From positions 926,669-990,668 of the forward strand of contig OZ220679.1 of the NCBI GenBank assembly GCA_965116355.1: a stretch of 64,000 nt of DNA, read 5' to 3'. The translations under genes were made by a program, and so were the position numbers. The stretch's first letter is position 1, and each line of letters starts with the position of its first letter. The notes under the pieces are model-generated. The model searched no databases and was not told the origin of the DNA. It saw nothing but the letters and a program-made list of their open reading frames with translations. The DNA is from Dehalococcoidia bacterium. Lineage in GTDB: Bacteria; Chloroflexota; Dehalococcoidia; Lucifugimonadales; UBA1127. Positions 2,362 to 32,174 of the stretch are shown here, piece by piece.

Positions 2362-2457
2362 TTGAGCCTACCATTCTTGTCATCCAGCAAAGCCATGCTT
2401 GCAGAACCCATACGCACGGACAACCTGTAGTCATGTGCCAAAAGCAGGGAGGCCAGG

Positions 2458-3426: not shown

Positions 3427-3427
3427 G

Positions 3428-3456
3428 CTGACTAGCTTCCAGCCCATGGATATAAT
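3428..3456 (+). promoter_or_regulatory. Predicted sigma70-type promoter for the toxin-antitoxin pair
   Basis: CTGACT (3428-3433), a 17-nt spacer, then TATAAT (3451-3456), about 90 nt upstream of the antitoxin ATG. Confidence 0.35.
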
Positions 3457-3543
3457 GAGATGAACATCCTCTACTCCACTATACCTCCAACACTACTGGC
3501 GACCCTAAGGAAGCCGGAGGGGCCGATAGGGAAGGTGCATGGC

Positions 3544-4241: not shown

Positions 4242-4275
4242 CCTCCGCACATTACTCCGCCAAGGATGTGCTGCG

Positions 4276-7200: not shown

Positions 7201-7770
7201 ACTTCGATTGCTACTCCCTTTGACGACCCCAAACCAGGGGAGACTCTGGTTCTGCTAAGCGCGGGCGGGGTTAAGAGCTGCTACGCCGTCGACAGCAACC
7301 TGCAACCGCGTGCTATCAGTCCTGCCCAACTCATCGCGGCGGCTGAATGTGGCCCCGACACGCCAGCACAACAGCTGCCACAGGACACGAATGAACGCGT
7401 AATGGCAGCGTTCGAAACATTCTTCGCGGACTTCCAACGTCGGCTCGGGAGAGCTAGAAGGACGCGTGACACAAGAGTTCGTCGCTATATCTCTCGCCAC
7501 CTCGGTATCGCCATTCGTGAGGCGAGTGAGGAAACAAGTTTTGTGAGCCGGATCGACGTGTTGCGTCAGATATTCCTAAGTGACGTGTCGCCGCAGGTTG
7601 AGAGCGCTTTGGGCGAAATCAGGAATATGCAGCTCGAGGGCCCCGCACTCGTGACTCGCCTTGAGGCCCTCCGAGAGCGCTACCGTCTCAACCCACCCGA
7701 TGAAGCTGAAGTCGCTCAGAGCGTCGAGCCCCAGGTGATTCGCATAGTCTGCTCGGACGGGCTCGTTTAG
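4276..7770 (+). CDS. PLD-family nuclease domain fused to an SNF2-family (SF2) helicase, with a long uncharacterised C-terminal region
   Basis: N-terminal HxK PLD motif (SPLHAKAYLC...GSSNLTLAG). SNF2 motifs are I GDVVGLGKT, II LVDEAHNFRN, III LMSATPQN. Helicase-C is LATDVVSEGQNLQDC...NYDLHWNPVRLIQRFGRVDRIG. Start is uncertain: TTG 4276 is chosen because it follows the PIN stop and AAGGA, and ATG 4330 is the alternative. Confidence 0.8.
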   Translation: MNILHATTEPTLLARLKEMLGSSASADIAVGYFFISGFEAVADDFARLGKVRILVGRTDRQVLDEVALGLQQQQALSARLRADSLVQRSQRSQIAQETIEHVAEGIAVLPQQRGSEEAVSKLRDMVAQGKLEVRAYLRSPLHAKAYLCWYENHAEPGSAVVGSSNLTLAGFTGNTELNVRVTGDAEMEALREWFDALWKESEDISGALVAELERSWALAKTPPYHVYLKALYELYYTDAGSGQLTVPPRDQGLANFQLDAVRRGLSMIRQYGGCYIGDVVGLGKTFVGAELLHQLRMSYPNDGPPLILCPARLKPMWERFNERFALGAEVVSHSMIGAPADSEFDEELGRYVDVAQPGQGVVLEQMYRNRGPVLVDEAHNFRNINQRSRGLASYLESSEHKVILMSATPQNLGPMDVYRQLRLFLHDTEHDLNIEPISLESYFHNAQLWLVYRAEYENYEAAYSAWQAAGSRGAPPLPPTKPGVLKAEIDQVLMPVFVRRRRKDIRDLYGDTAEIDGKPVRFPEPVLDNVEYRLDKVYAKAGPFDELQSLILDHQAARYRATEYIKEAAKGKAEYRDLFRAGDRIARLMGVLLLKRLESSIEAFRSTLTSLLTSNRNFRQALDAGFVPIGSTATRMLAGQSFDVDDLLEVLTQEEQRRQQAGSGRDKLVHATDDFETDRWSQDLDADYEVLESILGRVKEIGPEDDDKLRALREFLARPEVKSGKVLIFSEAETTVEYLYRELNPGGDLAHIARLTGSTSNVAESVVKRFSPTWNLGARESMPGPEIQVLLATDVVSEGQNLQDCACVLNYDLHWNPVRLIQRFGRVDRIGTEHEVINLHNMWPDLAVDAELSLTERLHRRIQSFHDLIGLDSKLLSDSERLNTGAMYRIYQEKALPEMDDGLDEVAANQRAITLLQRIQEEDPALWQTITRLPDGIRSALSVHEEQPEASNEQYAQAVLAVDGMQAPLISPTTLTSIATPFDDPKPGETLVLLSAGGVKSCYAVDSNLQPRAISPAQLIAAAECGPDTPAQQLPQDTNERVMAAFETFFADFQRRLGRARRTRDTRVRRYISRHLGIAIREASEETSFVSRIDVLRQIFLSDVSPQVESALGEIRNMQLEGPALVTRLEALRERYRLNPPDEAEVAQSVEPQVIRIVCSDGLV

Positions 7771-7915
7771 GCGGACTCGGTGTCCCCTAGTCACCACTTC
7801 ACTCCGCTCATCCTGACAAGACGCGGCTTGGCCTTCGTGTCGAGTCTTGATTCAGGAGTTCAGAACGAAAGACCGAAATGTTGCTGGCATCTGTGGAAGT
7901 AAGGTGAAACAAGCA

Positions 7916-10318: not shown

Positions 10319-11400
10319 TTGTGTCCGAGTGTAAGGAGGCGTCGCCTGAGCGAAACACTAAGCTCGCGACAAAGGCTATGCGTAGGAGCGACGACACATA
10401 CGTCGCCAGTGCCTTCAACAATGTGGGTTGTTACGAAGAGTTGAGCCAATAGGCTCTTGCCGGCGCTAGTGGGGAAGGAGAGGATAATTCTCCGGGCGGT
10501 TGGGTGGAGGGGCGACACACCGCCAGGTGCGTCAGGTGTGAGAAACGACAACTGTGGAGGCCAAAGTTGTAGGACCGGCGGGTCCCCCAGAGTCATTGCC
10601 CGTGCTGCACTTGGTAGGTTGGGAGGAAGAACACTCCATACGGCGGCAGCCTCCAATCCGTCTGAAATCCTCAGGAGGTGCGCGGCTACCCATCTGGATT
10701 CGACATCACTCGGCGCACCCAGAGTCTCAAGCGCTCGCCTGAATTGTCCCCGCGCGCTGTCCAACGAATTATTGCGGCCGTAGGTAAGGAAATCCGTTAG
10801 AGCTCGAGTCCCCCTTATGACGCCGTCAGTTGATGCGTATTTGGAATCTTCGACATTGCCAAATTCAGAAACTAGGCTGTCTAGCTGGTTGGCCCTTGTT
10901 TGAAGTAATGGGTAAAGAGCAGGACGGTCAAGCGCCAGCATCAAGACCCCAGCTTGAAGTGAGACGACTCCAGGGTCATCTAGTTGTTCGGGTTCACGGA
11001 CTATCGAAATCCGACGTGCGAGCGCAGCAGCATTTGGCGTCAACTGCCCGCCGATGTATGCAATTTGCGCCGCAAGTGTGTACTGCAACACTTCCAATTC
11101 TGTCAGGTCCCCGCTTTGGAGAGCGAGATCAAAGACGTGTCCGGAGACCTGATGGGCTTGCCGTTGTCGTTGGAGGTCATAGACTTGGAGGTCCTCCCGA
11201 GCCGTGGCTACGGATTGCAGATACCATGCAACATCAAGCAATTGCGGGTCGAAGTCGGCTTGGCGGGTGAACAGGCCAATCTCAGCAGTGGAAAGCAGGG
11301 TTCGGAGATCGTCAGGAGATGGCAACCGTGGGTGATCGCCTACGGCGTTAGTCAGAAGGTCAATATTTAGTGCCCGATCCACAACCCACAACCCTTCCAA
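10297..11400 (-). CDS. N-terminal fragment of the same helicase: unique approximately 290-aa N-domain plus motifs I/Ia
   Basis: FPTSAGKS (Walker A / motif I) and VVAPTHSLCRE (Ia) near the C-terminus. It ends 22 nt inside the next ORF in another frame. TTG/GTG start candidates at 11400/11382 overlap the upstream gene. Confidence 0.7.
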   Translation of the reverse strand: MEGLWVVDRALNIDLLTNAVGDHPRLPSPDDLRTLLSTAEIGLFTRQADFDPQLLDVAWYLQSVATAREDLQVYDLQRQRQAHQVSGHVFDLALQSGDLTELEVLQYTLAAQIAYIGGQLTPNAAALARRISIVREPEQLDDPGVVSLQAGVLMLALDRPALYPLLQTRANQLDSLVSEFGNVEDSKYASTDGVIRGTRALTDFLTYGRNNSLDSARGQFRRALETLGAPSDVESRWVAAHLLRISDGLEAAAVWSVLPPNLPSAARAMTLGDPPVLQLWPPQLSFLTPDAPGGVSPLHPTARRIILSFPTSAGKSLLAQLFVTTHIVEGTGDVCVVAPTHSLCRELSVSLRRRLLTLGHNCMSNQT

Positions 11401-12221
11401 AGCACTCTTCTTACTTCTTCAGCCAGACTAGGGAAGCCATCGACAAGGTTCAGGTTTCCCTGATGCTGGTCTGAAGGTAAGTCGAAGTAGCTTGTCACAT
11501 TGTTGAAACAACCATGTTCTCCCGTCGCTGGTGAAACGTCAGACCCGACGACTATGCCAACACCGGCAGAGGGATCTTTATCGGCCCAAAGCTCGGCGAT
11601 TCGGGCATAAAACGTGGCAAGTTGGTGATCATCACTAAGGTATTGGGCTACCAGTGAAAACCGAGCCAAGTAGTCGAGGGCACGATCCTTAACCTGTCTG
11701 CACGCAGTGTTGACCGTATCCGTAAGTGGACGTCCAGTGCCATGGAACTTAGACTCCCATAATCTGTAGGAATAGCCTCCGTTTGATTCGTATACAGTCA
11801 AACCGTCGCCGCCTGGATCCGCCACAGACCAGTCATGACTTTCCACTCTGATTGGGATACCAAGACCGACATCCTTGTTGGCTACAACGGCCTGCCATAT
11901 GGCCTCAGCAACGAGGCCATATAGATGCTCCTCTACAGCTGGTTCAGTTGGCGTTCCAACATTCTCAAGAAGCGACTGTTGAAGGACTCTTGCGGCAACG
12001 TTGTCAAGTGCCTCGTCTATGCCGTCAATCGCACGGCAGTGCCACAGTCCAAAAAGCCTCTTATCCATCAACCGACGTGATGCAATGCTGCAGGCCAAGG
12101 ATGCCGCAGCTGCGTCACGATTGGCTGATGCGAGGCGCCCATACAAACAAAATACCCCGGCCGCCGTAGTTTTGATTGAAAAGGTCAGAAGCGCTGGGAG
12201 GGGTGCACAAGATGCCTTCAT
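11367..12221 (-). CDS. HamA-like protein (DUF1837-type, PD-(D/E)xK nuclease-like); upstream partner of the helicase
   Basis: GDGLTV...YRLWESKFH gives a D...ExK arrangement. About 230-280 aa, directly upstream of and overlapping a Ski2-like helicase, as in Hachiman loci. ATG 12068 is an alternative start. The family call is from memory and was not searched. Confidence 0.5.
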   Translation of the reverse strand: MKASCAPLPALLTFSIKTTAAGVFCLYGRLASANRDAAAASLACSIASRRLMDKRLFGLWHCRAIDGIDEALDNVAARVLQQSLLENVGTPTEPAVEEHLYGLVAEAIWQAVVANKDVGLGIPIRVESHDWSVADPGGDGLTVYESNGGYSYRLWESKFHGTGRPLTDTVNTACRQVKDRALDYLARFSLVAQYLSDDHQLATFYARIAELWADKDPSAGVGIVVGSDVSPATGEHGCFNNVTSYFDLPSDQHQGNLNLVDGFPSLAEEVRRVLWKGCGLWIGH

Positions 12222-12793
12222 AGGAAGTACATCCCATCGCGGGGCATGGCCTGTTCCGTCGCAGAAGCGCTAGCGGGCTCGAGCAACAAGACGGAAGCGA
12301 GCGCCGTTCTTGTCTTGGTGCAAGCCTTGCGATGAAATAACTCCACTTACTTGTCCTGCTCCCGATACGTTTGGACTGTAGGTGAGAGTAACATGCCAGT
12401 GCCCTTGCGGTCAGCCTCAGTCCCTCAAATGGGGTCTGAGGGAGTTGTCTAGACGCTCCTAAGCAGATACTTGAACGGGAACGCACTGTCAATGAAGCAA
12501 CCATAGCTGCTACTCTGGGCCGTTGTTGGGTCAAGCCGTGGCATCAGGGAGGGATTTGGCGGAAGGAGTGTCCGACGCAAACAGGGTGTTCCGGCGCTGT
12601 TCTATGACCAGCCGGACCGCGCCTCATGCAACGTTAGCACAAGCCCATGGGTGAGTGGCCTGGAACGTTCATCGACCTGTGAGAAGTCATGGTCGACCAA
12701 GGCCGGATCGAGCTCGAGGCATAAGTTCCCAGGAAACCTCGATTTGAAAGGGTCGAATCGATCCCAGCCACAACGCGAGAAGCACATTACCTA

Positions 12794-13181: not shown

Positions 13182-13922
13182 CACGAAGCCGCTTCGGGAG
13201 GTAATGACAATGACACGGGCATTCGCCCACCGCGGGAAACCAGAGACTAGGTAAGAACGCCTGCACCACCGCTGCCGCATACGTACGTGTAGGGGGCCTC
13301 TCACCTACCGCATTGCACGCTTGCGACCCTTCCGTTTCCCCATACAGGCCTCCCACTGCTAAACTGGCCTTGGGGCGATTGCACTCTTGCCCCGGGCCCG
13401 CGATCACCCGCCGGCGCGCTGGGCGGCATGCGGCCCCAACGATCTCCCCGGCGGCGGCACATGGCCGGCGATGTCGGCGACCCACAGCGGCCGCCATTCC
13501 GGTCAGGTCGGCGAACCAGCCCGCCCCTGCCCCCACTCGGGGGGCGGTGATCGCGCCGTGGCAGGACCCCGTTCAGGGCCACCCAGGCGCTGCGGCACCG
13601 TGCCCCAGTCTAAGCTCTCGCCGATGCGCAGGCTGGCCGCGCCCGGGGGAGAGACCGTCTCCTGGCGCCTGGCCTGCGGCCCCCGGTACCGAATGCCCCG
13701 CCCGATTGACGGCTGCACCCCTCGCGGCACGATAGTGCGGTGCATCCACCACGTCGTCTGGCCACCATTGAAGGACTTACGCTGAAAGTTCACCTAGATT
13801 TGCACCGATAATTCACCCCCACGTCACAGAACATCCCCTATTATCTTCATGGGAGTATGCGCTTGCTGACCGGCGGGCCTGGGACCTGCCGGGGCAGCGC
13901 CAGTGTTGCTCAACGGACAAGG

Positions 13923-16900
13923 ATGCGAGGTATGGCAGAGAAGAAACGGACGGGCTTCCTCTTCGCGATTCTGGCGGTGGTTCTCATGGTCGTTGGCTGT
14001 GAGTCGCAGGAACCTTCTGCCTTTACGGCCCCTGAGGCCCAAGAACACCGAGAGCCAACCGTCACCCAGACGCCCGCTGCAAGCCTGAAACTTGGCAATC
14101 CTACGCCCACTCCAACGGCTGTCGTGGCCCAGGAAACCGGTACTACTGATAGTGGCCTTATACCCACTCCAACGGCTGCCGTGGCCCGGGAAACCGCTAT
14201 TTCTGATAGAGGCTTGACACCTACTCCGACGGCAGCCGCAATCCAAGAATCCAATGCAAAGGACAATAGCCCTGCCCCCACCCTCGAAGCATCGCCAACC
14301 CCCAAGAGGAGTGACGAGTGCGTCACAGGGGTCGCTGTGGTGGACGCCGACGACAACCCGGGGCTGGTCTCCGACTGCACCACTCTGCTGGCGGCGCGAG
14401 ACACCCTGGCGGGCAATGCCACGCTTAACTGGTCGGCGGACACGTCCATCTGGCAATGGGATGGCGTCTCTATATGGGAGACGCCTCATCGCGTGAGGGG
14501 CTTGTATCTGGAGTCCAGGCAACTAAGTGGGGAAATACCGCCGGAGTTAGGCGACTTGGCCAGCCTCCGGCAACTGAACCTCAGCGACAACCAGCTGAGC
14601 GGGGCGATCCCACCGGAGTTGGGCGACCTTGCCAGCCTGACCGATCTGACCCTCAGCGACAACCAGCTGAGCGGGGCGATCCCGCCGGAGTTGGGTGACC
14701 TTGCCAGCCTGACCAATCTGACCCTCAGCGACAACCAGCTGAGCGGGGCGCTGCCCCCGGAGTTGGGGAGCCTCGCCAACCTGGAGTCACTGCGGCTGCA
14801 GGACAACCGGTTGAGCGGAGAGTTGCCCCCGGAGTTGGGCAACCTCGCGAACCTGGAATGGGTTTTTCTTGCCAACAACCAGCTAATCGGGGAGATACCG
14901 CCGGCGATGGGGAACCTCGCCAACTTGATAGTTCTGGCGCTCAGTGGAAACCAGATCGACGAATGCGTCTCCATCGCAGTGCCGGACGTGGCCAATAACC
15001 CGGGGTTGCTGTCTGACTGCCGCGCACTGGTGGCCGCGCGGGACACGCTGTCGACGCATAGCGTCCTTAACTGGCTGGCGACGACGCCCATCAGTGAGTG
15101 GGACGGGGTTCACGTGAGCGGGACACCAAAGCGGGTGACGGCAATTCGAGTGCGACGTGGTTGGTTGGATGGGAAGATACCTGTTGAATTGGGCGCCCTT
15201 TCCAGTCTGACCAGTCTGGACCTCAGTGACAACCAGCTGCGTGGGGCGATCCCGCCGGAGTTGGGCAACCTCGTCAAACTGGAGTCACTGCGGCTGCAGG
15301 ACAACCAGTTGAGCGGAGAGTTGCCCCCGGCGTTGGGAAACCTCGCGAACCTCACAGAGTTGAACCTCCACGGCAACCGACTAGGCGGGGAGATCCCGAC
15401 GGAGCTAGGCGTCCTCACCCGCTTGAGAGTCCTGAGCATCGGGAGGAATGGTTTCAGCGGGGAGATCCCGCTGGAGTTGAGCGCACTTGTCGACCTGAGG
15501 AGACTCAATCTCGGGGGCAATTTGTTGAGCGGGGAGATCCCGTCGGAGTTGGGCGCCCTCCCCAACCTAACGTCACTGGACCTCGGAGTGAACAAGTTCA
15601 GCGGGGCGATCCCGTCAGAGTTGGGGAACCTCTCCAACCTGGAGCTTCTGAGCCTCGAAAGGAACCAGTTCAGCGGGGCGATCCCGCCAGGGTTGGGAAA
15701 CCTCACCAACCTGGAGTCACTGGACCTCCATGGCAACCAGTTGAGCGAGGAGATCCCGCCGGCGTTGGGTAATCTCTCCCCCCTGACGGAACTATGGCTC
15801 GGGGGCAACCAGCTAAGCGGGACGATCCCGGCCGAGTTGGGCAAACTTATAAACCTGACCGATTTGTACTTGAGCCATAACGAGTTGAACGGGGCGATCC
15901 CGCCGGCGTTGGGCGGCCTCACCAACCTCCTATGGATGGATGTCAACGACAACCGGCTGAGCGGGGCGATACCGCCGGCGTTGGGCAACCTCGTCAATCT
16001 GACGGAGCTGAACCTCAGCGACAACCGGCTGAGCGAGGCGATACCGCCGGCGTTGGGCAACCTCGTCAATCTGACGGAGCTGAACCTCAGCGACAACCGG
16101 CTGAGCGAGGCGATACCGCCGGCGTTGGGCAACCTTGCCAGCCTGACCAGTTTGAACCTCAGCGACAACCAGTTGAGTGGGGCGATCCCGCCGGAGTTGG
16201 GCAACCTCGTCAATCTGACGGAGCTGAACCTCAGCAATAACCAATTGAGTGGGAGTTTGCCGCCAGAATTGGCCAACCTCGTCAACCTGGAAAGGCTGTT
16301 CCTCAGCGGCAATCAGTTCAACGAATGCGCGTTACTTCCAGTGGAGGAAGTCGACCCCACCCCGGGGCTCCAATCCGACTGCCGCGCTCTGCTGGCGGCG
16401 CGGGGCCCCCTGGGGGGCGACTATTCGCTTAACTGGTCAGCGCTCACCCCCATCGCCCAGTGGGACGGAGTTCGGGTGAGTGGGACACCCCAGCGCGTGA
16501 CGGCATTGCAAGTGCATACCAAGCATTTGAGCGGCGAGTTACCTCCGGTGCTGGCACAGCTCTCCAACCTGACAGAATTGGACCTCAGTGGCACCCGGTT
16601 GAGGGGGGCGATCCCGCCGGAGTTGGGGAACCTTGCCAACCTGACCGTCTTGGAACTTGGGGGCAACCAGTTGAGCGGGGAGATCCCGCCGGAGTTGGGC
16701 AACCTTGTGAACCTGACCGTATTGGACCTTCGGAACAATCAGTTGAGTGGGGTAATGCCACCGGAGTTGGGCAACCTCGCCAGCCTGAGGGAGATGACCC
16801 TCAGTGACAACCAGCTAAGCGGGACGATCCCGGCCGAGTTGGGCAACCTCGCCAATCTGGAAGTGCTGTTGCTAAAGGAAAATGCGTTGAGCGGGGCCAT

Positions 16901-17822
16901 CCCGGCCGAGGTGGGCAGCCTCTCAAACCTGCGAACGCTGGAGCTTCAGCAGAACCAGTTGAGCGGGGTGCTGCCGGCGGAGCTGGGCAGCCTGACCAAC
17001 CTCGAAGAGCTGTGGCTCAACAGCAACCAGGTCAGCGGGGAACTACCGCCGGAATTGGGTGGCCTAGACAACTTGGCGGAGTTACATCTCTACGGCAACG
17101 ATCTGACCGGGGAGATTCCCGCGGCTTTGGGCGCTCTGGCCAACCTCGAAGTGCTGTGGCTCGGCAAAAACCAGCTGAGCGGGGCAATCCCGCCGGCGTT
17201 GGGAAACCTCGCCAACCTAAGGGTGTTGGTACTCAGTGGGACCCAGTTGAGGGGGGCGATCCCGCCGGAGTTGGGCAACCTTGCCAACCTGACCGAATTG
17301 GGCCTTGCGGGCAACCAGTTGAGCGGGGCGATCCCGGCGGCGTTGGGCGGCCTCGCCAACCTCCAGCAACTGGGGCTCGGCAACAACCAGTTGAGCGGGG
17401 AGATCCCGGCGGCGTTGGGCGACCTCGCTAACCTAGGGGTGTTGGACCTTCGGTACAACCAGTTGAGCGGTGAGCTTCCCCGGGAGCTGGGCGACCTCAC
17501 CTGGTTGCGATGGGCAAGGCTGGACGACAACCAATTAAGCGGAGCGATCCCGCCGGCGTTGGGCAACCTCGCCAACCTGGAAGTCCTAGGGCTCAGCGAC
17601 AACCAGCTCAGTGGGGCGATCCCGCCGGCGTTGGGCAACCTCCCCAGCCTGAAGGGACTGTACCTTCAGGGCAACCAGTTAAGCGGTGAGCTCCCGCCGG
17701 AATTGGGTGCCCTTAAGCTGGTCTCACTGAACCTCGATGGCAACAAGCTGAGTGGCTGTGTGCCTCTCACCTTGTCGGACCTCTGGGTCCGTGAGACCGG
17801 GCTGGAACGTTGCCAAGCGTAG
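13923..17822 (+). CDS. Giant leucine-rich-repeat lipoprotein with plant-specific-type 24-aa LRRs in three modules, each preceded by a Cys-pair cap
   Basis: Lipobox LMVVGC follows a basic N-terminus. There are dozens of LxxLxLxxNQLSGxIPPELGNLxN repeats. Three cap segments read C..NPGL.SDC.AL.AARD.L......LNW.......W.GV. Start ATG 13923 (13932 is the alternative). Confidence 0.85.
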   Translation: MRGMAEKKRTGFLFAILAVVLMVVGCESQEPSAFTAPEAQEHREPTVTQTPAASLKLGNPTPTPTAVVAQETGTTDSGLIPTPTAAVARETAISDRGLTPTPTAAAIQESNAKDNSPAPTLEASPTPKRSDECVTGVAVVDADDNPGLVSDCTTLLAARDTLAGNATLNWSADTSIWQWDGVSIWETPHRVRGLYLESRQLSGEIPPELGDLASLRQLNLSDNQLSGAIPPELGDLASLTDLTLSDNQLSGAIPPELGDLASLTNLTLSDNQLSGALPPELGSLANLESLRLQDNRLSGELPPELGNLANLEWVFLANNQLIGEIPPAMGNLANLIVLALSGNQIDECVSIAVPDVANNPGLLSDCRALVAARDTLSTHSVLNWLATTPISEWDGVHVSGTPKRVTAIRVRRGWLDGKIPVELGALSSLTSLDLSDNQLRGAIPPELGNLVKLESLRLQDNQLSGELPPALGNLANLTELNLHGNRLGGEIPTELGVLTRLRVLSIGRNGFSGEIPLELSALVDLRRLNLGGNLLSGEIPSELGALPNLTSLDLGVNKFSGAIPSELGNLSNLELLSLERNQFSGAIPPGLGNLTNLESLDLHGNQLSEEIPPALGNLSPLTELWLGGNQLSGTIPAELGKLINLTDLYLSHNELNGAIPPALGGLTNLLWMDVNDNRLSGAIPPALGNLVNLTELNLSDNRLSEAIPPALGNLVNLTELNLSDNRLSEAIPPALGNLASLTSLNLSDNQLSGAIPPELGNLVNLTELNLSNNQLSGSLPPELANLVNLERLFLSGNQFNECALLPVEEVDPTPGLQSDCRALLAARGPLGGDYSLNWSALTPIAQWDGVRVSGTPQRVTALQVHTKHLSGELPPVLAQLSNLTELDLSGTRLRGAIPPELGNLANLTVLELGGNQLSGEIPPELGNLVNLTVLDLRNNQLSGVMPPELGNLASLREMTLSDNQLSGTIPAELGNLANLEVLLLKENALSGAIPAEVGSLSNLRTLELQQNQLSGVLPAELGSLTNLEELWLNSNQVSGELPPELGGLDNLAELHLYGNDLTGEIPAALGALANLEVLWLGKNQLSGAIPPALGNLANLRVLVLSGTQLRGAIPPELGNLANLTELGLAGNQLSGAIPAALGGLANLQQLGLGNNQLSGEIPAALGDLANLGVLDLRYNQLSGELPRELGDLTWLRWARLDDNQLSGAIPPALGNLANLEVLGLSDNQLSGAIPPALGNLPSLKGLYLQGNQLSGELPPELGALKLVSLNLDGNKLSGCVPLTLSDLWVRETGLERCQA
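15951..16139 (+). repeat. Near-identical 72-bp (one LRR) tandem units inside the LRR gene
   Basis: Units 15951-16022 and 16023-16094 differ at one base. The first approximately 45 nt of a third unit are identical as well. Confidence 0.85.
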
Positions 17823-19383: not shown

Positions 19384-19601
19384 CGCTGCCTGTCCTAGCG
19401 CTGGTTCCAAGACCTGCGCGTCGCGGCGAGGCCCCGGCCTGTCCGCCTCTGACGGCGTTTGGTATGCTCCACCCATTGCGGAGGCAGGAGTGGGCGGGGT
19501 GTGATGGGCGTGCCCCCGGCGTTGAAACAATCGCCGACTGCGCTGCCGTGCGTGAGCGTGCGGCACGCGTAGGTGTGCGAAAGGTGGTGGTGGTCGACGT
19601 T

Positions 19602-19636
19602 GTGGTCGTCAAAACCCCCCTATGTATATAGATCAG
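19602..19636. repeat. Solitary copy of the 35-nt core GTGGTCGTCAAAACCCCCCTATGTATATAGATCAG
   Basis: Same core as the heads of the tandem units at 27352, 27512, 28101 and 28667. About 100 nt of flanking homology continues downstream (CCCCGAAA..., AGACCAGGGAGC...). Confidence 0.8.
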
Positions 19637-19991
19637 AGCTTCTTCAACTTGCCCCCGAAATTCGCTGGCCATGGGTAGGCCCCGAGGCCCTAGTCCGGCC
19701 AAGACCAGGGAGCGCACGGCCAAGGGGCGGGACGCCTGCGCGCCGCCGTGGGGAACAAGCGGGTCATGACGGTGCTGGTGGGAGAGGACGTGCTGCGTCG
19801 TGCCCCCGGTGAGTATGGATCAGAGGACATCCAGGCAGGGTCACGAACCCCCTATGCCCACCGTCCTGCATGCACCGCACCAGGGGAAGGCCGGTTCCTC
19901 CCCCCGACCGGCCCGGCAGACGCCTAGCCAACATGGGACCCTTCCGTCCCGGGTATCTTGGTGGTCACGATGGGCAGGGGTGATGCTGAAT

Positions 19992-21842
19992 TCACCGCGG
20001 ATAGATCAGATTTTGTCCCCAGCACACTGGCGTGCCGCCTTCCCGCAGCCCGCAGTTGCCGCTGATGGTCGTGAAGACGCCTTCAGGCGGGTCAGCCTGA
20101 CCATTGCGGTTAGCACCCCAGCACACCACCGTACCGTCGTCCCTCAACCCGCAGGTGCGGTCCCATCCGCCACTGATGGCGGTGAAGGTTTCCCCCTGTG
20201 GCGGACTGGCCTGACCTTCCGTGTCGGAGCCCCAACACACCGCCGCGCCGCTATCCCGCAACCCGCAGGTGTGTTCATGACCGCTGCTGATGGCGGTGAA
20301 GGTCTCTCCCGATGGTGGGCTTGCCTGACCATAGTAGTCATCCCCCCAGCACATCGCCACGCCGTTATCCCGCAACCCGCAGGTGTGGTACGGCCCGACG
20401 CTGATGACGGTGAAGGCCTCTCCCGATGGTGGGCTTGCCTGACCAAACTCGTCATTGCCCCAGCACACCGGCGCGCCGTCCCTTCTTTGCAACCCGCAGG
20501 TGTGGTACGGCCCGACGCTGACGGTGGTGAATATCCGGCGCTTCGGCGGGCTTGCCTGACCATAGTAGTCATCCCCCCAGCACACCGCCACGCCGTTATC
20601 CCGCAACCCGCAGGTGTGGTACGGCCCGACGCTGATGACGGTGAAGGCCTCTCCCGATGGTGGGCTTGGCGCATATCCGAAACCATCGTCCCAGCACAGC
20701 GGCGCGCCGTCTTCCCACAACCCACAGACGTGGGCTCCCCCGGCGCTAATGGCCGTGAAGCCCCCTTCCGGCGGGCTCGCCTGACGAGACTCGTTCCAGC
20801 CCCAGCACAGCGGTGCGCCGTCTTCCCGCAACCCGCAGGTGTGGTTAGCCCCGCTGCTGATGGCCGTGAAGGTTTCCCCCTCCGGCGGGCTTGCCTGACC
20901 ATAGTAGTCATCCCCCCAGCACACCGCCACACCACTATCCCGCAACCCGCAGGTGTGGGACGACCCGCTGCTGATGGCCGTGAAGATCTCACCCGGCGGT
21001 GGGCTTGCCTCAGGCCTTGCCTGACCATGTGACTCGTTCCAGAACCAGAACGGCGTCCAACCCCAGCACACCGGCGCGCCATCTTCCCGCAACCCGCAGG
21101 TGTGGTTAGCCCCGCTGCTGATGGCCGTGAAGGTCTTCCCCTTCGGCGGGTCTGCCTGACGGTACCTGTTATAGCCCCAACACACCGGTAAGCCGTCTTC
21201 CCGCAACCCGCAGGTGTGTTCATGACCGCTGCTGATGGCCGTGAATACGTGCGCCTGCGACGGACTTGCCTGACCATACTGTTCATAACCCCAACACACC
21301 ATCGTGCTGCTGCCTTTCTCTTTCTGCAACCCGCAGGTGTGACCATGTCCGCTGGTGCTAACAACGTCGTCCTCCTGCGACGGGCCTGTCTGCGGGCTAG
21401 CCTGACCATATCGGTCATCCCCCCAGCATACGGCCGTGCCATCCTCCCGCAACCCGCAGGCGTGGGACCCCCCGTTGCTGATGGCCGTGAAGGTCTCATC
21501 CTCCGGCGGGTAGTGGGTCGAGCCCCAGCACGACGCCACGCCGTCTTCCCGCAACCCGCAACTGTAGCGCCCCCGTTTCCCAGCGCTGATGGCGGTGAAG
21601 ACCTCTCCCACCCAGGGGAGGTCTTCCAATCCCCAGCACACTGCCGTGCCATCTACCCGCAACCCGCAGGTCTGGTGTTCCCCACTGCTTATAGCCGTGA
21701 GCCGGCCGACGGGCAGATCATTATTGCGGGTAGACGCGGATAGCCCGTCGTCACACCCCGCCACGAGCGAGACCGTCACCAAGACCCACAGCGCCACCTG
21801 CAGGCTCTCCCTGTGCCGTCCTGCCCGTACCCGGTCTCCCAT
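19992..21842 (-). CDS. RCC1-repeat (beta-propeller) lipoprotein
   Basis: Lipobox LVAGC. About 15 repeats of the form FTAISSG..HTCGLREDG.PVCWG...YGQA. Confidence 0.85.
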   Translation of the reverse strand: MGDRVRAGRHRESLQVALWVLVTVSLVAGCDDGLSASTRNNDLPVGRLTAISSGEHQTCGLRVDGTAVCWGLEDLPWVGEVFTAISAGKRGRYSCGLREDGVASCWGSTHYPPEDETFTAISNGGSHACGLREDGTAVCWGDDRYGQASPQTGPSQEDDVVSTSGHGHTCGLQKEKGSSTMVCWGYEQYGQASPSQAHVFTAISSGHEHTCGLREDGLPVCWGYNRYRQADPPKGKTFTAISSGANHTCGLREDGAPVCWGWTPFWFWNESHGQARPEASPPPGEIFTAISSGSSHTCGLRDSGVAVCWGDDYYGQASPPEGETFTAISSGANHTCGLREDGAPLCWGWNESRQASPPEGGFTAISAGGAHVCGLWEDGAPLCWDDGFGYAPSPPSGEAFTVISVGPYHTCGLRDNGVAVCWGDDYYGQASPPKRRIFTTVSVGPYHTCGLQRRDGAPVCWGNDEFGQASPPSGEAFTVISVGPYHTCGLRDNGVAMCWGDDYYGQASPPSGETFTAISSGHEHTCGLRDSGAAVCWGSDTEGQASPPQGETFTAISGGWDRTCGLRDDGTVVCWGANRNGQADPPEGVFTTISGNCGLREGGTPVCWGQNLIYPR

Positions 21843-25677: not shown

Positions 25678-25885
25678 GCCGGAGAACTGGAGGACGATCT
25701 GGCGGCGGCAGTGCGCCGCTGCGTCCAGCGGGCCCAGGACCTCATCGACGACGGGGTGATTCCGCCCCAGGCGTGGAACTGGGCCATCTGCTCACAAATC
25801 CTGGAGAGCGACGAGGACTGGGCGGGTAAACGCGGACGCGGAGCTGTGATGCGCCCCCGTCTGCTACCTGAGTCCGCCTCAGCGC
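25678..25885 (+). pseudogene. 5'-truncated duplicate of the small gene at 26460..26687 plus its downstream flank
   Basis: AGELEDDLAAAVRRCVQRAQDLIDDGVIPPQAWNWAICSQILESDED parallels the C-terminus of the full copy. The stop codon is mutated (TAG to TGG). Nucleotide homology continues about 60 nt past the gene. Confidence 0.6.
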
Positions 25886-26096: not shown

Positions 26097-26410
26097 GCAG
26101 TTTTCGCGCAGGCGGGCTGTCCCGAAAACCCCCCGGCGGTCCGGCACTGCGCACACCTACGCCGGCGCACAGGTTGGCCGGCTGGCCCAAAAGGTGATGA
26201 TTCTGAGACAAGGATGACGACATGGCCGACAATGACGCCGGAAACCCGTCGCCAGCCGCACAGAACGGGGCAAGACGACCCTCCTAGGTCGTCACCCGTC
26301 AGCCACCCGTCCGAGGGCCGAAACGCACCGTCCTGCACGTCCAGGGCGGCGTTGCGCGCGTGGGGTGACGCTGGCGGGGGAACGAGGGCAAGATACCGGC
26401 AATCGACGGT

Positions 26411-26437
26411 TTCAAGATTATCGCCGATAATCTTGAA
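26411..26437. promoter_or_regulatory. Perfect palindrome TTCAAGATTATCG-C-CGATAATCTTGAA (candidate operator) just upstream of the small gene
   Basis: 13-bp arms and AT-rich in a GC-rich context. It ends 22 nt before the ATG at 26460 and is followed by AAGGAG. Confidence 0.5.
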
Positions 26438-26459
26438 AAGCCCCGGCAAGGAGACGGCC

Positions 26460-26687
26460 ATGTACTCGGACGAGGCATTGAAGGACAAGCGCCGGCAGTT
26501 TCTCCGGGAGTGCAAACCGAAGGCGTATCGGGCGCTGCGCGCCGCCGGGGAGCTGGAGGACGATCTGACAGCCGCAATGCGCCGCTGCGTCCAGCGGGCC
26601 GAGGACCTCATCGACGACGGGGTGATTCCGGCCCAGGCGTGGAGCTGGGCCATCCGCTCGCAAATCCTGGAGAGCGCCGAGGACTAG
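26460..26687 (+). CDS. Small conserved hypothetical protein (75 aa), possibly TnpV-like
   Basis: Strong RBS AAGGAG. MYSDEALKDKRRQFLRECKPKAYRALRAAGELEDDLTAAMRRCVQRAEDLIDDGVIPAQAWSWAIRSQILES. A partial paralog lies at 25678. Confidence 0.6.
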   Translation: MYSDEALKDKRRQFLRECKPKAYRALRAAGELEDDLTAAMRRCVQRAEDLIDDGVIPAQAWSWAIRSQILESAED

Positions 26688-26789
26688 GCGGATAGTCGCG
26701 GGCGCGGAGCGGCGGTCCGCCCCGGTCTGCTACCGGAGTCCGCCTCAGCGTGCCCAGGGCGGGCGTTGGCGGGGCCGGGCTGGTCTTCA

Positions 26790-26909
26790 CGTCCACCAGG
26801 GGCGCGGGAGAGGAGCCACGCCGGCGCGGTGCCAGCGTCCACCGGGGCGCGGCGCATCCAGGACGGGGGTTTCGCGGAGCTGGACGGCCCCACGTCCACC
26901 GGGGCGCGG
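26790..26909. repeat. Three direct copies of CGTCCACC(A/G)GGGCGCGG (iteron- or arm-site-like)
   Basis: Copies at 26790-26807, 26836-26852 and 26893-26909, with starts spaced 46 and 57 nt apart. Confidence 0.5.
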
Positions 26910-27351
26910 CGGAGGGCCGCCTCGGCGATGACCACAACACCCGTGCGCACGGAGACGGCGGGCGCCCGGTGTTCTCCAACGCCGGCCTGCCCGTAGGCCC
27001 CTCGCGCCCACGGAGACGATGACCACGGAGACGAAATCCTTGGCGGGCGCCGTCCGGCCCCACGCTGGCTGTCACCGCGCCATGCCATCCTATCCGCATG
27101 GCGTCCGCCATGGGCCCGCGCTGTCGTTCGCGACGACGGCGAGGGGCGCTGCCTCCAGTGTGGGCGGCCGCGCGGCGTTCATGGCGATCATGGTGACGCC
27201 GTGGGTGTGCGCATGGTGCGGCGGCGATGTGGTGCGCGTCATCGTGCACGGCAGCCTCGTCAACAAGCGGTTCTGCTCACGGCGGCACAGGGGGACTATC
27301 ATCACGCGCATCGCGACGGCCTGGGTGGTGAAGGTGGAAGAAGATGATGTT

Positions 27352-28810
27352 GTGGTCGTTAAGACCCCCCTATGTATATAGATCAGGGAAGCATGAACTC
27401 CACCCCGAAAACCGTTTCACTCCCCCCGCGTCTTCCACCGACAGCGGGGGGCATGATGCCGTCGCGCCGTCATGGGGCACAGGCAGGTGGCGGGTGGTGG
27501 TGGTGGTTGTCGTGGTCGTCAAAACCCCCCTATGTATATAGATCAGGGGAGAATGAACTCCACCCCGAAAATCCCTCACGCCCGCCCTGCCGAAGGCGTC
27601 GCCGTATGGGAAGAGTGGTCTAGACCAGGGAGCAGGTGGCCAGGAGGCGGCACACCTGAGCGGGGAGGGTCCGGCCGTGCGTCACGTTCCTCCGGAGCGC
27701 CGCACGTGGACGCCCACCGCCCCACCATGTTCCTCCCAACACTGCCGCTGTCGCCAATGCGGGCAGACCAGCCGTCTGCCGCACCCCGTGGCGCCATGCC
27801 GGCGCATTGGGGACGCGGACCCGTGCTTCCTACCGGGGCTCAGGCATGTGCGGCAATCCGGAGCGCCGCCCGGCCTGCGGTCGCAAAGGGCCACAGGACC
27901 CGGAGCCGATGCCCAACGGGCCACGCAGACCTGAAGCACCGCGGCGACCGTTGGCCTGCGAAGTGCGTGGGCAAGTGGTCTTTTTGGCGGATCTGCCGCC
28001 CGAGGACAGCGCCCACCACGAGGACGCCGGCCAGGGGCATGATGCCGTCGCGCCGTCAGGGGGCACAGGCAGGTGGCGGGTGGTGGTGGTGGACGACGTC
28101 GTGGTCGTTAAAACCCCCCTATGTATATAGATCAGCGAAGAATGAACTCCACCCCGAAAATCCCTCACGCTCGCCCTGCCGAAGGCGTCGCCGTATGGGA
28201 AGAGTGGTCTAGACCAGGGAGCAGATGGCCAGGAGGCGGCACACCTGCGCGGGGAGGGTCCGGCCGTGCGTCACGTTCCTCCAGAGCACCGCACGTAGAC
28301 GCCCACCGCCCCACCATGTCCCTCCCAACACTGCCGCTGTCGCCAATGCGGGCAGCCCACGCCGTTTGCCGCACCCCGTGCCTCCTGCCGGGGCTCAGGC
28401 ATGTGCGGCAATCCGGAGCGCCGTCAGGCCTGCGGTCGCGAAGGGCCACAGGACCCGTAGCCGATGCCCAACGGCCCCGGAGACCTGAAGCACCGCGGCG
28501 ACCGTTGGCCTGCGAAGTGCGTGTGCAAGTGGTCTTTTTGGCGGATCTGCCGCCCGAGCACAGCGCCGTCCACGAGGACGCCGGCGAGGGGCATGATGCC
28601 GTCGCGCCGTCAGGGGGCACGCGCATCGTGACGGCCTGGGTGGTGAAAGCAGAAGAAGATGATGTTGTGGTCGTTAAAACCCCCCTATGTATATAGATCA
28701 GGGAAGAATGAACTCCACCCCGAAAATCCCTCACGCCCGCCCTGCCGAAGGCGTCGCCATATGGGAAGAGTGGTCTAGACCAAGGAGCAGATGGCCAGGT
28801 GGCGGCACAC
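27352..28810. repeat. Tandem array of long repeats, each headed by the 35-nt core GTGGTCGTYAARACCCCCCTATGTATATAGATCAG
   Basis: Cores at 27352, 27512, 28101 and 28667. Units are 27387-27546 (160 nt, an internally deleted form), 27547-28135 (589 nt) and 28136-28701 (566 nt), plus a partial fourth unit fading out near 28810. Units 2 and 3 align end to end with scattered substitutions and indels. Confidence 0.85.
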
Positions 28811-29346
28811 AGCCGCGCACGGCGCCGGGATGGGCGTCCCGCCACTGGTGATGTCGCCGAGGCGCACGCACCCCGTGCAGTCTGTCGTTCTACGACGCAT
28901 CGCAACCCAGCGTGGCGGGCGCGGCCTCTTGCCAAGGCCCAGGCACGCGGGGCAGGCTGGAGCGCCGCAAGGCTTGCCGCCGAACGTCCCCACAGGTCCC
29001 GTCGCCAATGCGCAGCGAACCATGCCGAGCGAAGTTTCGTGGCGAGGGCTGGACCGGCGGACCATCTCGCTGACGGAGCCTCTTCGCGACCTGGGGACCA
29101 TCCGGGTGCCGGTGCGCCGCGGGGAGCGGTCGCGGACACCCAGCCGGCAATCCCTCGAAGCTCCAAGCCTAGCTCGACCGTATGGGCGATGACCACAACG
29201 CTCCGAACGGGAAGGCTGCCCAACCCGCTTGACGTCTCTTCTGATTCCCCTCCGCACCAAAGCCACTCCCTGGCACCTTCCCCCTTGCGGCCGGCAAAGG
29301 CCCACGCGTACCCTACACTTAGCTGTGCTCAGGGTGGAACTCGCAG

Positions 29347-30264
29347 ATGAGATTGCTTCCCACGCATCGCACCCAGCTCGACCCCAACATCCAATGGCTG
29401 CTGGCGACGCACCTGGACATCCTCGAGGAAGTCGCTCGCGAACCCCGGGGCGCTGGCACTGGCGACCCCAGCCCGCAAGTGGCGAACCGGCGCATAGGCG
29501 TCGCCCTGGTTCGTCAGGACTGGGAGGCCGAGGAAGCGGCCATTGATGATTTCCTGCGTGGGCAATTCCGGGCGTGGTTGCGAGACTTTCCCGAAGGGCC
29601 ACTCTTCACCCGTCTCCTGGAGCGCGCGGCCCGTTGGCGGTCGCGGTCGGGCACCCGCGACCGCGACCGCAGCCGCCGGCCCACCCACCCCGAGGGTCTC
29701 CGGATCGCCAGGGCCCTGCTGGAGGGCGTCACGCCGCCGGGTCCGTTGGACACCGAAGGAGAAGCCGCGACCCTGGCCGCAATGCTGGCGGGCTACGAGG
29801 GGCTCACCTATGCCTTTCCCCCTCGCGCCCGATGGCGCGAGTACGTCAGGTTGTCCCGAAGGAGCCGCGTCCACTTCGACGCCCTCGGTGACCTCATTGC
29901 GGAATGGGAGCGGCAGGGGAGACCAATCCCCCGAGGGCTGGCCCGGTGGCGACAGAAGGTCGCCGAGGGTCGCCGCCGGCGTCCCGACTCGCCACCCATC
30001 CCGCGCCACCGCCCCGCAAACCCCGCCCAGATGGCCTATGAGATGGAGGTGCAGGGCACCATCGAGATCCTCCACCGGCTTCGCGTGCCGCCTAGGGGAA
30101 CATTCCTCTCCGGCTGCCGCATGGTGGCCGAGGCGTTGGACATCCCGGAAGACACGGTCGTGCGCATCTGGAAGAAGTGCCCGTGGAGGACGTCCTTCCT
30201 GCCGACGATGGGGAAGTACTCCAGGGCGATCGCCATTCGCCACGGCCTTTATCCCCCCAACTGA
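29347..30264 (+). CDS. Hypothetical island protein with a possible C-terminal HTH
   Basis: Diverse residue usage (QWLLATHLDILEEV, FLRGQFRAWLRDFPEGPLFTRLLE), unlike the Arg/Gly/Pro-rich antisense ORF 29329..30414. GCRMVAEALDIPEDTVVRIWKK is HTH-like. Confidence 0.5.
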   Translation: MRLLPTHRTQLDPNIQWLLATHLDILEEVAREPRGAGTGDPSPQVANRRIGVALVRQDWEAEEAAIDDFLRGQFRAWLRDFPEGPLFTRLLERAARWRSRSGTRDRDRSRRPTHPEGLRIARALLEGVTPPGPLDTEGEAATLAAMLAGYEGLTYAFPPRARWREYVRLSRRSRVHFDALGDLIAEWERQGRPIPRGLARWRQKVAEGRRRRPDSPPIPRHRPANPAQMAYEMEVQGTIEILHRLRVPPRGTFLSGCRMVAEALDIPEDTVVRIWKKCPWRTSFLPTMGKYSRAIAIRHGLYPPN

Positions 30265-30527: not shown

Positions 30528-30737
30528 ATGGAGGACAGACTACTGCGGCGTCGGCAGGTGGAGGAGATCACGGGATTGGCGCGCTCGACGATTTATCGGC
30601 TCATGGAACAGGGCGCCTTCCCGCGGCCCGTCCGGGTTGGCCCCAGCGCCGTCCGCTGGCGGGAGAGCGACATCACCCAGTGGATGGCGTCACGGCCGAC
30701 CGCCGGCGGCGAGCGGGACCACCCCGATTGGGCCTAG
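30528..30737 (+). CDS. alpA: AlpA-family excisionase / transcriptional regulator
   Basis: LLRRRQVEEITGLARSTIYRLMEQGAFPRPVRVGPSAVRWRESDITQW is the classic AlpA/Xis-type wHTH pattern. Adjacent to the integrase. Confidence 0.85.
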   Translation: MEDRLLRRRQVEEITGLARSTIYRLMEQGAFPRPVRVGPSAVRWRESDITQWMASRPTAGGERDHPDWA

Positions 30738-30742
30738 GTGAT

Positions 30743-31984
30743 CTAATTGTGACCGGAACCCGCAAGCACAGGCTGTACCACCTCGACCTGCGGTGCGCCT
30801 GCCACATAGTCGCCCCACTGCTGCATCAGCGTGCGGCGCCGGTCGAGGAGGTCCGACCGGGCGTAGGCCTGCTCCGTCCCATTGCCCAGGACGTGGGCCA
30901 GCGCCGCCTCCGAGACCGCCCAGGGCGTGTCCGTCTGCTCCAGCGACCAGTTCTTGAAGCTGCTCCGGAACCCGTGGACCGTGGCCCGGTCCGCCAGACC
31001 GACGGCGCGGAGGATCTTGGTCAGCGTCATGTCCGACAGCTCAGCCCCGGCCTTCAGCGGCGACGGGAACACCAACCCGCTGTCGTCCCGCAGGACCTCC
31101 GCCTCGCGGAGCACAGCGAGGGCCTGCCCGCCCAGGGGGACCCGATGCTCCATCCCCGCCTTCATCCGCCGGGCCGGTATCCGCCATTCCTCTCTCACGA
31201 GGTCGATCTCCTCCCAGGTGGCGCCCCGGGCCTCGCCGGAGCGGGCCGCCGTCAGCACCACAAACCGGAAGCACAGCCTGGCGGCGAGGGAGGCTTGGGA
31301 CGACGCCACCGTCTCCAGCGCCGCTCCGACGTCCCGATAGGGGAGGGTCCGGTGGTGGGCCTTCACCTTCGGCATCGGCGCCAGCGCCCCGTCAATGGCC
31401 TCTCCCGCCGGGTTGCTCTCCATGAAGCCGTGGGCCATCGCCCACCGAAAGACCGTCCGCATCCGCTGGCGCACCCGCCGCGCCGTCTCGGGACGAATCG
31501 TCCATATCGGCGTCAGCACCCGCAGCACTGCCCCCCGGTCGATCCGGTCCAGGGTCATGGAGCCGATCACCGGCATGGCGTGCCGCTCCAGGGTCTGCAG
31601 CCAGCTCGCCGCGTGCCGGGCGTTCCGCCACCGGGGGGTGTTGGCGGCATGCACCGCCTGGGCGGCCTCCCGGAACGTCGGCATCGCCGGCTCGCGCCTC
31701 TCGGCCAGGGGGTCCCGACCCTCCGCCACGGCGGCCCGGTTCTCCGCCGCCTTCACCCGCGCCTGCGCCAGGCTGACCGACGGGTAGCTCCCCAGCCCGA
31801 TGTCCCGCCGGCGTCCGTCGACGGTGATGCGCTGGACCCAGGACCGGCTCCCCGCCTTGCTGATGTAGAGGTGCAGGCCCCCGCCGTCGGCGTACCGTCC
31901 CGGGGTCTTGAGGGCGTTCGCCCGCGTTGCCGAGAGTGCCATGGTTCCCCCTCCGTGCCGGTTTGTTCCCACATATTTTACCAC
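30743..31984 (-). CDS. int: P4-type tyrosine integrase
   Basis: N-terminal DUF4102-like arm-binding region (GRYADGGGLHLYISKAGSRSWVQRITVDGRRRDIGLGSYPSVSLAQAR). C-terminal HGFRSSFKNW...ALAH...AYARSDLL. Immediately downstream of the tRNA 3' end. Confidence 0.9.
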   Translation of the reverse strand: MVKYVGTNRHGGGTMALSATRANALKTPGRYADGGGLHLYISKAGSRSWVQRITVDGRRRDIGLGSYPSVSLAQARVKAAENRAAVAEGRDPLAERREPAMPTFREAAQAVHAANTPRWRNARHAASWLQTLERHAMPVIGSMTLDRIDRGAVLRVLTPIWTIRPETARRVRQRMRTVFRWAMAHGFMESNPAGEAIDGALAPMPKVKAHHRTLPYRDVGAALETVASSQASLAARLCFRFVVLTAARSGEARGATWEEIDLVREEWRIPARRMKAGMEHRVPLGGQALAVLREAEVLRDDSGLVFPSPLKAGAELSDMTLTKILRAVGLADRATVHGFRSSFKNWSLEQTDTPWAVSEAALAHVLGNGTEQAYARSDLLDRRRTLMQQWGDYVAGAPQVEVVQPVLAGSGHN

Positions 31985-32098: not shown

Positions 32099-32174
32099 TG
32101 GTGGAGATAGGGGGATTCGAACCCCCGACCCCTTGCATGCCATGCAAGTGCTCTTCCAGCTGAGCTATATCCCC
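32099..32174 (-). tRNA. tRNA-Ala (anticodon GGC), CCA encoded
   Basis: The reverse complement folds as a cloverleaf: GGGGATA-TA-GCTC-AGCTGGAA-GAGC-A-CTTGC-ATGGCAT-GCAAG-GGGTC-GGGGG-TTCGAAT-CCCCC-TATCTCC-A-CCA. The G3:U70 alanine identity pair is present. Confidence 0.9.

Follow-up and report, generated by a model that had tools for sequence, protein, structure and literature searches.

What does a short AT-rich sequence do that recurs four times, head to tail and without obvious genes, beside the integration module of a genomic island? The question is raised by a stretch of 64,000 nucleotides (nt) from a Dehalococcoidia bacterium (contig OZ220679.1 of assembly GCA_965116355.1, forward strand), called here the window, in which all positions are counted from the first letter. 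The window combines a lower-G+C island (~0.51–0.66 up to ~26 kb) with a host segment of 0.61–0.75, and the repeats, each headed by the 35-nt core GTGGTCGTYAARACCCCCCTATGTATATAGATCAG, stand just before a gene for an orphan protein of 305 aa (open reading frame, or ORF, 29347), a gene of the AlpA type and a tyrosine integrase. Most likely, and we hold this with moderate confidence, the repeats are copies of a promoter-plus-leader cassette that belongs to one family of tRNA-integrated islands and that became tandemly duplicated in an island undergoing degeneration.

The preliminary description of this DNA had placed the core at 27352, 27512, 28101 and 28667. Exact copies are present at all four positions, on the plus strand, and a fifth exact copy, absent from that list, occurs alone at 19602 (+); shuffled sequence gave 0 matches against these 5 real ones. 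The core-to-core spacings are 160, 589 and 566 nt, as given before, and delimit units 1 to 3 (Table 1). Units 2 and 3 do align, with 88% identity over 813 columns including indels (gapped alignment of 27448–28244 with 28034–28810), and their difference in length, 23 nt, is not a multiple of 3. The fourth, partial unit starts at 28667 and continues into the conserved region upstream of ORF 29347; the decay ascribed to it is found in the body (38–68% identical to units 2 and 3), and core plus leader remain 90–98% identical. A weaker continuation of the unit body, at 69–73% identity, reaches 28924–29045. The sequence preceding core 1, flank type A, recurs before core 4 (27303–27411 vs. 28618–28726, 94% identity in a gapped comparison), so that core 4 is preceded by the flank of core 1 and followed by the leader of cores 2 and 3, a chimeric junction.

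The AT-richness remarked on earlier is borne out: the box TATGTATATAGAT is exceptional, since 10 or more A/T in 12 nt occur in just 21 stretches of the 64 kb, five of which are the cores. Around the solo copy, a segment of 109 nt is 66% identical to the array copies although the 35-mer itself is exact. Because of this, and because unit 4 keeps its core and leader much better than its body, selection or conversion within the window appears to act on the cassette alone. Units 2 and 3 are colinear and head to tail, unit 4 is colinear but older, and the junctions (the 94% match of flank A) fit recombination between pre-existing repeats, as in a tandem segmental duplication. Unlike the spacers of a CRISPR array, the inter-core intervals are 125–554 nt long and homologous to one another. 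Tandem Repeats Finder did not report the array, because the unit periods exceed its maximum of 500 nt.

Relatives of the core are found in sister islands, designated here by locus numbers. A motif search and a profile search gave 17 distinct related cassettes in such islands and in one Dehalococcoidia metagenome-assembled genome (examples are in L004, L005, L006, L018, L008, L011, L002, L016 and L019, plus L027 and L028). Their consensus is (GGT)n, GTCGTGTCGTTnAAnCCCCCC, TATnTATATAGATmAG, ~10 nt and then CTCCAGCCCGAAA. Across the 17 aligned cassettes the ATATA box never varies and the GT.GT and CC-TAT positions hardly do; reading the sequences also shows a constant 15–16 nt between GTCGTT and TATA(G/T)A. 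In a blastn comparison of the array with the sister loci, most of the core homologs lie on the strand opposite to the 303-aa gene, the counterpart of ORF 29347. The earlier statement that no described element carries this core holds for the collections searched: the exact 21-mer of the core has 0 matches in GTDB representative genomes, IMG/VR and JGI metagenomes, a longer degenerate pattern has 0 in IMG/VR, blastn of 27303–28810 against phages and plasmids gave no match, Rfam gave no relevant match, and a literature search returned nothing specific. The same statement does not extend to the sister islands, where the relatives are clear. A degenerate 21-mer yielded just two true relatives, L008 and L011, from a single Dehalococcoidia metagenome-assembled genome, the rest being chance matches in low-GC genomes.

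The position of these cassettes is what points to their role. An ATG preceded by a ribosome-binding site occurs at +50 to +73 from the TATA box in 12 of the 17 cassettes, against a chance rate of 0.096 at random positions in the same loci (P = 2e-9); after near-identical cassettes are collapsed to lineages, the count is 8/13 (P = 6e-6). In L004, L005, L006 and L027, a pair of cassettes 101–116 nt apart heads a co-directional (leftward) string of ~9 small genes that begins with an arginine-rich zinc-ribbon protein of 171–174 aa, "MPSRRRR" (MPSRRRRP...). The same layout recurs in L011, with a homolog of 241 aa and in an element that has an integrase and a homolog of the 115-aa gene of L004, and a cassette of L018 heads a 589-aa gene. 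A third cassette type (L004, L018 and L028) is followed by a small ORF, MTT[T/M]VKT[R/K]ER..., of 17–47 codons. The array, the solo copy, L004, L018 and L028 have in common a conserved leader block of ~60 nt (GGTCwAGACCAGrGAGC...). The core behaves like a promoter with its leader because the ribosome-binding site and ATG follow at a fixed distance, in a fixed orientation, and because the cassettes head strings of genes (L004, L005, L006, L011, L018 and L027), and the preliminary idea of a −10-type element carried by the core itself gains from this arrangement.

Each long unit (2 and 3) has four parts: cassette, leader, body and tail. The leader is of the L004c type (72% identity over 168 nt, blastn against the sister loci). 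Its 17-codon ORF starts at the expected +63 and reads MGRVV*TREQ..., a TAG replacing the AAG of the L004c and L018 relatives and of the solo copy. Pieces of the body match −560 to −310 upstream of the 303-aa gene in L002, L004–L006 and L018, colinearly and in the same orientation; elsewhere this source stretch is present in one copy per island. The region upstream of the 303-aa gene is noncoding, since tblastx scores are similar in all six frames, with frame switches, and its last 220 nt are well conserved and include the gene's own promoter-like site. In the window, the corresponding block upstream of ORF 29347 includes a TTGCGG-N18-TACCCT promoter-like site and a ribosome-binding site. The tail of the long unit holds GGGGCATGATGCCGTCGCGCCG, which by eye looks like the ribosome-binding site and opening codons of the sister MPSRRRR gene (AGGTGCATCATGCCGAGCCGTCGCCG), and then (GGT)n.

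Unit 1 had been taken for an internally deleted form of the long unit. Its leader (27412–27438, CCGTTTCACTCCCCCC) is instead of the L004a/b type, as found 3′ of the cores in L004–L006, and not of the unit-2 type, and the MPSRRRR stub follows directly; by its composition, unit 1 reads as a cassette with another leader type more than as a deleted unit 2. The units are not pseudogenes of any L004 island gene, since the window holds none of those genes. The 371-aa gene that lies upstream of distant 317-aa homologs of the orphan gene was considered as the source of the unit body and ruled out, there being no tblastn match. The tract (GGT)n directly 5′ of the core varies from ~3 to 9 units between related cassettes, always in 3-nt steps (L004, L005, L006, L011, L018, L027, L028 and the window), which looks like the behavior of a slippage-prone microsatellite. 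Taken by its parts, the array reads as a mosaic of promoter cassettes and fragments.

The following course of events would account for this mosaic. A family of elements that inserts beside tRNA genes in high-GC, Dehalococcoidia-like Chloroflexota would carry a cassette of ~90 nt with the core at its center, placed in intact relatives at the head of small-gene operons. The AT-rich box TATnTATATAGA would serve as a −10-like melting element, with transcription starting a few bases downstream and the ribosome-binding site and ATG coming 50–73 nt later. The island of the window would have lost its cassette-driven operons, and we infer that recombination between cassette copies then produced the head-to-tail array of four, each cassette trailed by fragments: the broken 17-codon ORF, a duplicated noncoding piece from upstream of the 305-aa gene and the stub of the lost first operon gene. 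Unequal recombination of this kind would leave a chimeric junction with flank A before cores 1 and 4. If active, the four stacked promoters would fire rightward through 0.7–2.0 kb of noncoding DNA, and transcripts would be expected to read through into ORF 29347 and the AlpA gene, since there is no terminator-like site in 26900–29400. The solo cassette at 19602, if active, would yield an RNA antisense to the 3′ end of the RCC1 gene. With the leader ORF broken in the array, any leader-peptide control would probably be lost.

Several observations weigh against a promoter of the ordinary kind, or against a promoter at all. Promoter activity is inferred from the position of the cassette. A scan of 26900–29400 for the sigma-70 consensus (TTGACA- and TATAAT-like hexamers 16–18 nt apart) gave 0 sites, and the would-be −35 hexamer, GTCGTT or GTAGTG, bears little resemblance to TTGACA. 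Conservation covers the whole 35 nt with its C-rich spacer, which is beyond the needs of a plain sigma-70 promoter and hints at an additional or different binding factor that the cassette may require. Gene conversion instead of selection could keep the cores identical. No start codon lies close to five of the 17 cassettes (L008, L002, L016, L019-9149 and the solo copy), and co-oriented called genes lie downstream in only ~9/13 cases, several of the exceptions being doubtful gene calls or insertion-sequence insertions. The (GGT)n tract and the inverted repeats flanking some cassettes are unaccounted for. By reading, other promoters of the window look sigma-70-like (TTGTGC-N17-TATAGT upstream of the tRNA, TGgTAAAAT upstream of the integrase).

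The unexplained (GGT)n tract, the invariance over 35 nt and the missing −35 consensus together leave a modest chance that the cassette is the recognition sequence (~45–90 nt) of an element-specific, non-sigma-70 transcription system with a factor encoded by the element. That factor could be the orphan 305-aa helical protein, with its C-terminal helix-turn-helix (HTH)-like end, or one of the zinc-ribbon or HTH_17 proteins. The variable (GGT)n tract could then tune or phase-vary promoter output, and the four-copy array could be an amplifier, or a sponge for the factor, controlling ORF 29347 and AlpA and hence excision of the island.

We give about the same small weight to the possibility that the core is mainly a protein-binding site, such as an operator of an element regulator, a centromere-like site or an iteron, with the array as a cluster of binding sites or a sponge. 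The conservation of the C-rich "spacer" in five copies with divergent flanks would be expected of such a site, as would the GTCGT-GTCGT direct repeat and the near-palindromic TATA box that can be read from the sequences, and the islands encode several HTH_17/AlpA-type and zinc-ribbon DNA-binding proteins; the lack of a sigma-70 consensus points the same way. A ribosome-binding site and ATG at a constant distance and in a constant orientation nonetheless fit a promoter, and if an operator overlapped the promoter, this would agree with the promoter-plus-leader cassette and be no rival to it. Several dispersed copies per element speak against a single origin or centromere. Replication or partition repeats, which had been offered as one possibility, are disfavored for that reason and because each copy is oriented with a downstream start codon.

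Noncoding RNA (ncRNA) genes had also been proposed, each unit encoding a functional RNA of ~570 nt, or a shorter leader RNA, transcribed from its own core. Units without protein-coding signal headed by a promoter-like core, a ~60-nt leader block shared with the solo copy and three sister islands, and a solo copy without a downstream gene would all suit this idea, which we nevertheless consider improbable. Rfam matches only the tRNA in the whole window, and in 26500–29500, with E-values up to 10, only chance microRNA and small-RNA matches far below gathering scores. The consensus fold of six leaders (RNAalifold) is weak, −9.35 kcal/mol with a positive covariation term of +1.86, although with ~4 independent lineages of that leader type the power is low and a short leader RNA keeps some probability; z-scores of minimum free energy (MFE) folding, −2.0 to +1.7, are not significant. 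The bodies decay to 38–68% identity and are copies of an intergenic stretch that is single in other islands, and the conserved leader block reads in relatives as the small ORF MTT[T/M]VKT[R/K]ER..., of variable length. A long-range stem between G-rich and C-rich segments around the core, seen in some MFE folds, was tried as an RNA or DNA structure and rejected, the z-scores not being significant and the stem being missing in some copies.

Less probable still is that the cores are recombination sites, either att-like scars of serial integration, which the preliminary description had offered as a possibility, or inverton promoters flipped by a recombinase. A G-rich (GGT)n upstream and a C-rich (ACC)n downstream do form inverted repeats of 10–23 nt around the core in L004c, L018 and L006, and matching pairs are visible by eye around core 2 (GGCAGGTGGCGGGTG/CACGCCCGCCCTGCC) and core 1 (GGTGGAAGA/TCTTCCACC); moreover, the window and L004–L006 differ in how the core is oriented with respect to the block that precedes the 303-aa gene. 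But the arms are of low complexity and no such repeats are found in L008 or the solo copy, the sequences adjoining the core differ between the two orientations, so that no simple flip is involved, and folding z-scores are not significant. As to att sites, the tRNA 3′ segment occurs once in the window, the integrase–tRNA region has no match to the array, and the cores share no identity with the 3′ end of tRNA-Ala; they lie inside islands at the heads of operons and not at the boundaries.

That the array codes for protein, the core being the conserved 3′ end (...VVVKTPLCI*) of a small-gene family or the units encoding Arg/Pro-rich proteins, is highly improbable, in keeping with the earlier judgment that the array is noncoding. 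Three window ORFs terminate in the core with this same tail, indels 5′ of the core have lengths divisible by 3, and gene callers do call the ORFs. A difference of 1 nt in the C-run between the window and L004-type cores, however, changes the frame and turns the tail into ...VVSFNTPY* in L004, so that the core is conserved as nucleotides and not as protein, and slippage in (GGT)n explains the steps of 3. Among 5.8 billion proteins there is no homolog of the 246-aa ORF across unit 2 or of the 66-aa ORF that ends in core 1, where zinc-ribbon likeness (CxWCGG...FC..HR, resembling a small protein of L002) is limited to the first 37 residues. The spread of G+C between codon positions is 0.03–0.26 over the array vs. 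0.35–0.6 in host genes. An assembly artefact through mis-expansion of the repeat, conceivable in what contig names of sister sequences such as ctg245942_20x_c suggest is a long-read metagenome assembly, is hardly credible, because the units differ by 6–12% and by several indels, the junctions differ, and independently assembled sister islands also have tandem cassettes 101–116 nt apart.

Table 1. Cassettes, array units and integration module of the island, in window coordinates
Feature	Position	Strand	Remarks
Solo cassette	19575–19636	+	(GGT)n tract and exact core 19602–19636; in a gap between convergent genes; points into 3′ end of convergent RCC1-repeat gene
Small ORF 3′ of solo core	19671–19769	+	MGRPRGPSPAKTRERTAKGRDAC...; KTRER block common to leader ORFs of sister cassettes (alignment)
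Orphan small ORF, 66 aa	27181–27381	+	Zinc-ribbon fragment, then G/T-rich flank; stop in TATA of core 1
Flank type A of core 1	27303–27351	+	Repeated at 28618–28666
Unit 1	27352–27511	+	Core 1 27352–27386; L004-type leader to ~27438; "MPSRRRR" stub ATG 27453/27456; (GGT)n
Unit 2	27512–28100	+	Core 2 27512–27546; broken leader ORF 27606–27659; body ~27685–27956; MPSRR stub ATG 28039; (GGT)n
Unit 3	28101–28666	+	Layout of unit 2; core 3 28101–28135; broken leader ORF from 28195; MPSRR stub ATG 28583; end is flank type A 28618–28666
Unit 4	28667–29122	+	Core 4 28667–28701 and leader kept; body diverged; runs into the sequence preceding ORF 29347
Conserved noncoding block upstream of 305-aa gene	29123–29346	+	76–79% identity to L001, L002, L004–L006, L018
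305-aa orphan gene (ORF 29347)	29347–30264	+	First intact gene 3′ of all four array cores
AlpA-type excisionase or regulator, 69 aa	30528–30737	+	Pfam AlpA on orthologs
Tyrosine integrase with arm-binding domain	30743–31984	−	
tRNA-Ala(GGC)	32099–32174	−	Integration target; right-hand island boundary

The integration module gives the family of islands its common frame. In all retrieved contexts (L001–L006 and L016–L028), the 303-aa gene is followed, usually after an AlpA gene, by a convergent integrase, beside a block of host genes; in L002, L003 and L005 the host neighbors are those of the window, a GT20 glycosyltransferase and a superoxide dismutase. The 305-aa protein has homologs in at least 58 clusters, the family being 303–317 aa long, and no Pfam, PHROG, PDB-sequence, PDB-fold or BFVD viral-fold match. 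A sigma-like factor was considered and discarded on the same five comparisons. The AlphaFold model of the protein is confident (mean predicted local distance difference test score, pLDDT, of 81.5) and all-helical with an HTH-like C-terminus, and the family is probably a module-specific regulator of unassigned type. A paralog, P0002 (locus L001), is 89% identical to the 305-aa protein and was read from a 1.5-kb Logan contig; the same genome may hold a second, related island. Among the more distant relatives, L021 and L024–L026, loci without a cassette, have a DUF5131 gene and the 371-aa gene directly upstream of the 317-aa homolog. Within the window, 12852–12993 matches 30555–30696, in the region of the AlpA gene, over 142 nt at 76% (39 nt at 90%); this is perhaps what is left of an earlier, second integration module, in which case the island would be composite.

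The cargo of the island consists of defense-type and repeat-protein genes and includes a DUF6884 protein. The defense-type cluster (1–12500) comprises Eco57I/TaqI-like methylase and specificity genes, an AF2212/MazE-like gene with a PIN (toxin) gene, a 1208-aa PLD-SNF2 helicase, split DEAD-box helicase ORFs and a second tyrosine recombinase (2458–3426). Two eukaryote-like repeat proteins follow, one of 1321 aa with leucine-rich repeats of 24 aa, or 72 nt (13857–17822, +), and one of 616 aa with RCC1 repeats of 38 aa, or 114 nt (19992–21842, −). Just left of the array there is a second segmental duplication (25678–25884 vs. 26544–26750, 89% over 207 nt, or 87.5% over 224 nt when gapped), a copy of the 3′ part of the small ORF ending at 26687 (...MRRCVQRAEDLIDDGVIP.QAW.WAI.SQILES), and the entire stretch of 25.6–29.3 kb is rich in duplications. 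A near-perfect palindrome of operator-like appearance (26410–26439, TTTCAAGATTATCG-C-CGATAATCTTGAAA) lies ~45 nt 5′ of that small ORF (MYSDEALKDKRRQFLRE...). In the host DNA, long runs of 9-nt and 12-nt periodic repeats occupy 57700–58400 and 58960–59290; the 9-nt one, CCCTGCGGGCCCTGCGGACC, points to a minus-strand gene for a collagen-like Gly-X-Y protein.

The cassette, the island family and the orphan 305-aa protein appear to be undescribed in the collections searched. To our knowledge, almost nothing is known of transcription signals in the uncultured, Dehalococcoidia-like soil bacteria concerned, and for the islands of this poorly studied group the comparison defines a conserved promoter-like cassette together with an integration module (303-aa gene, AlpA and integrase). 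The array offers an example of repeated regulatory cassettes seeding tandem duplications as a mobile element decays, and it is a caution that GC-rich repeat arrays may be mistaken for genes or ncRNA loci. If an element-specific factor does read the cassette, it would provide a handle for genetic tools and for island annotation.

Read as copies of a promoter-plus-leader cassette, the repeats can be set beside four known systems. In T7-like phages, near-identical promoter copies head the transcription units. As with such reiterated promoters of phages and integrative elements, one mobile element harbors multiple occurrences of a long, near-invariant sequence (35–45 nt here), all of them in line with the opening gene of a transcription unit and at a set distance from it, and an AT-rich TATA-like box precedes the presumed start; unlike in T7-like phages, the islands examined yielded neither a single-subunit RNA polymerase nor a sigma factor, and for the model of the 305-aa protein there is no match among solved or viral folds. 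With sigma-70 promoters, including the extended −10 type, the cassette shares the AT-rich hexamer TATA(G/T)A, the 15–16-nt spacing and the downstream ribosome-binding site and ATG (50–73 nt), whereas its upstream hexamer, GTCGTT or GTAGTG, matches TTGACA at most at 1–2 positions, the consensus scan is empty, the spacer is conserved and C-rich, and the cassette includes a (GGT)n tract.

Invertible promoters (invertons) are known from fimS and from the capsule switches of Bacteroides. The short inverted repeats flanking the promoter-like core in several cassettes and the opposite orientation of the core in the window and in L004–L006 recall them; in contrast to invertons, the repeats are low-complexity GGT/ACC arms and absent in some copies, there is no dedicated invertase beside the cassettes, and the sequences flanking the core differ between orientations. 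Tandem duplications by unequal recombination likewise present head-to-tail units of unequal age with chimeric junctions, and the repeated cores supply the homology that such events use; the difference is that in this island a promoter-like cassette and noncoding fragments were duplicated and not genes.

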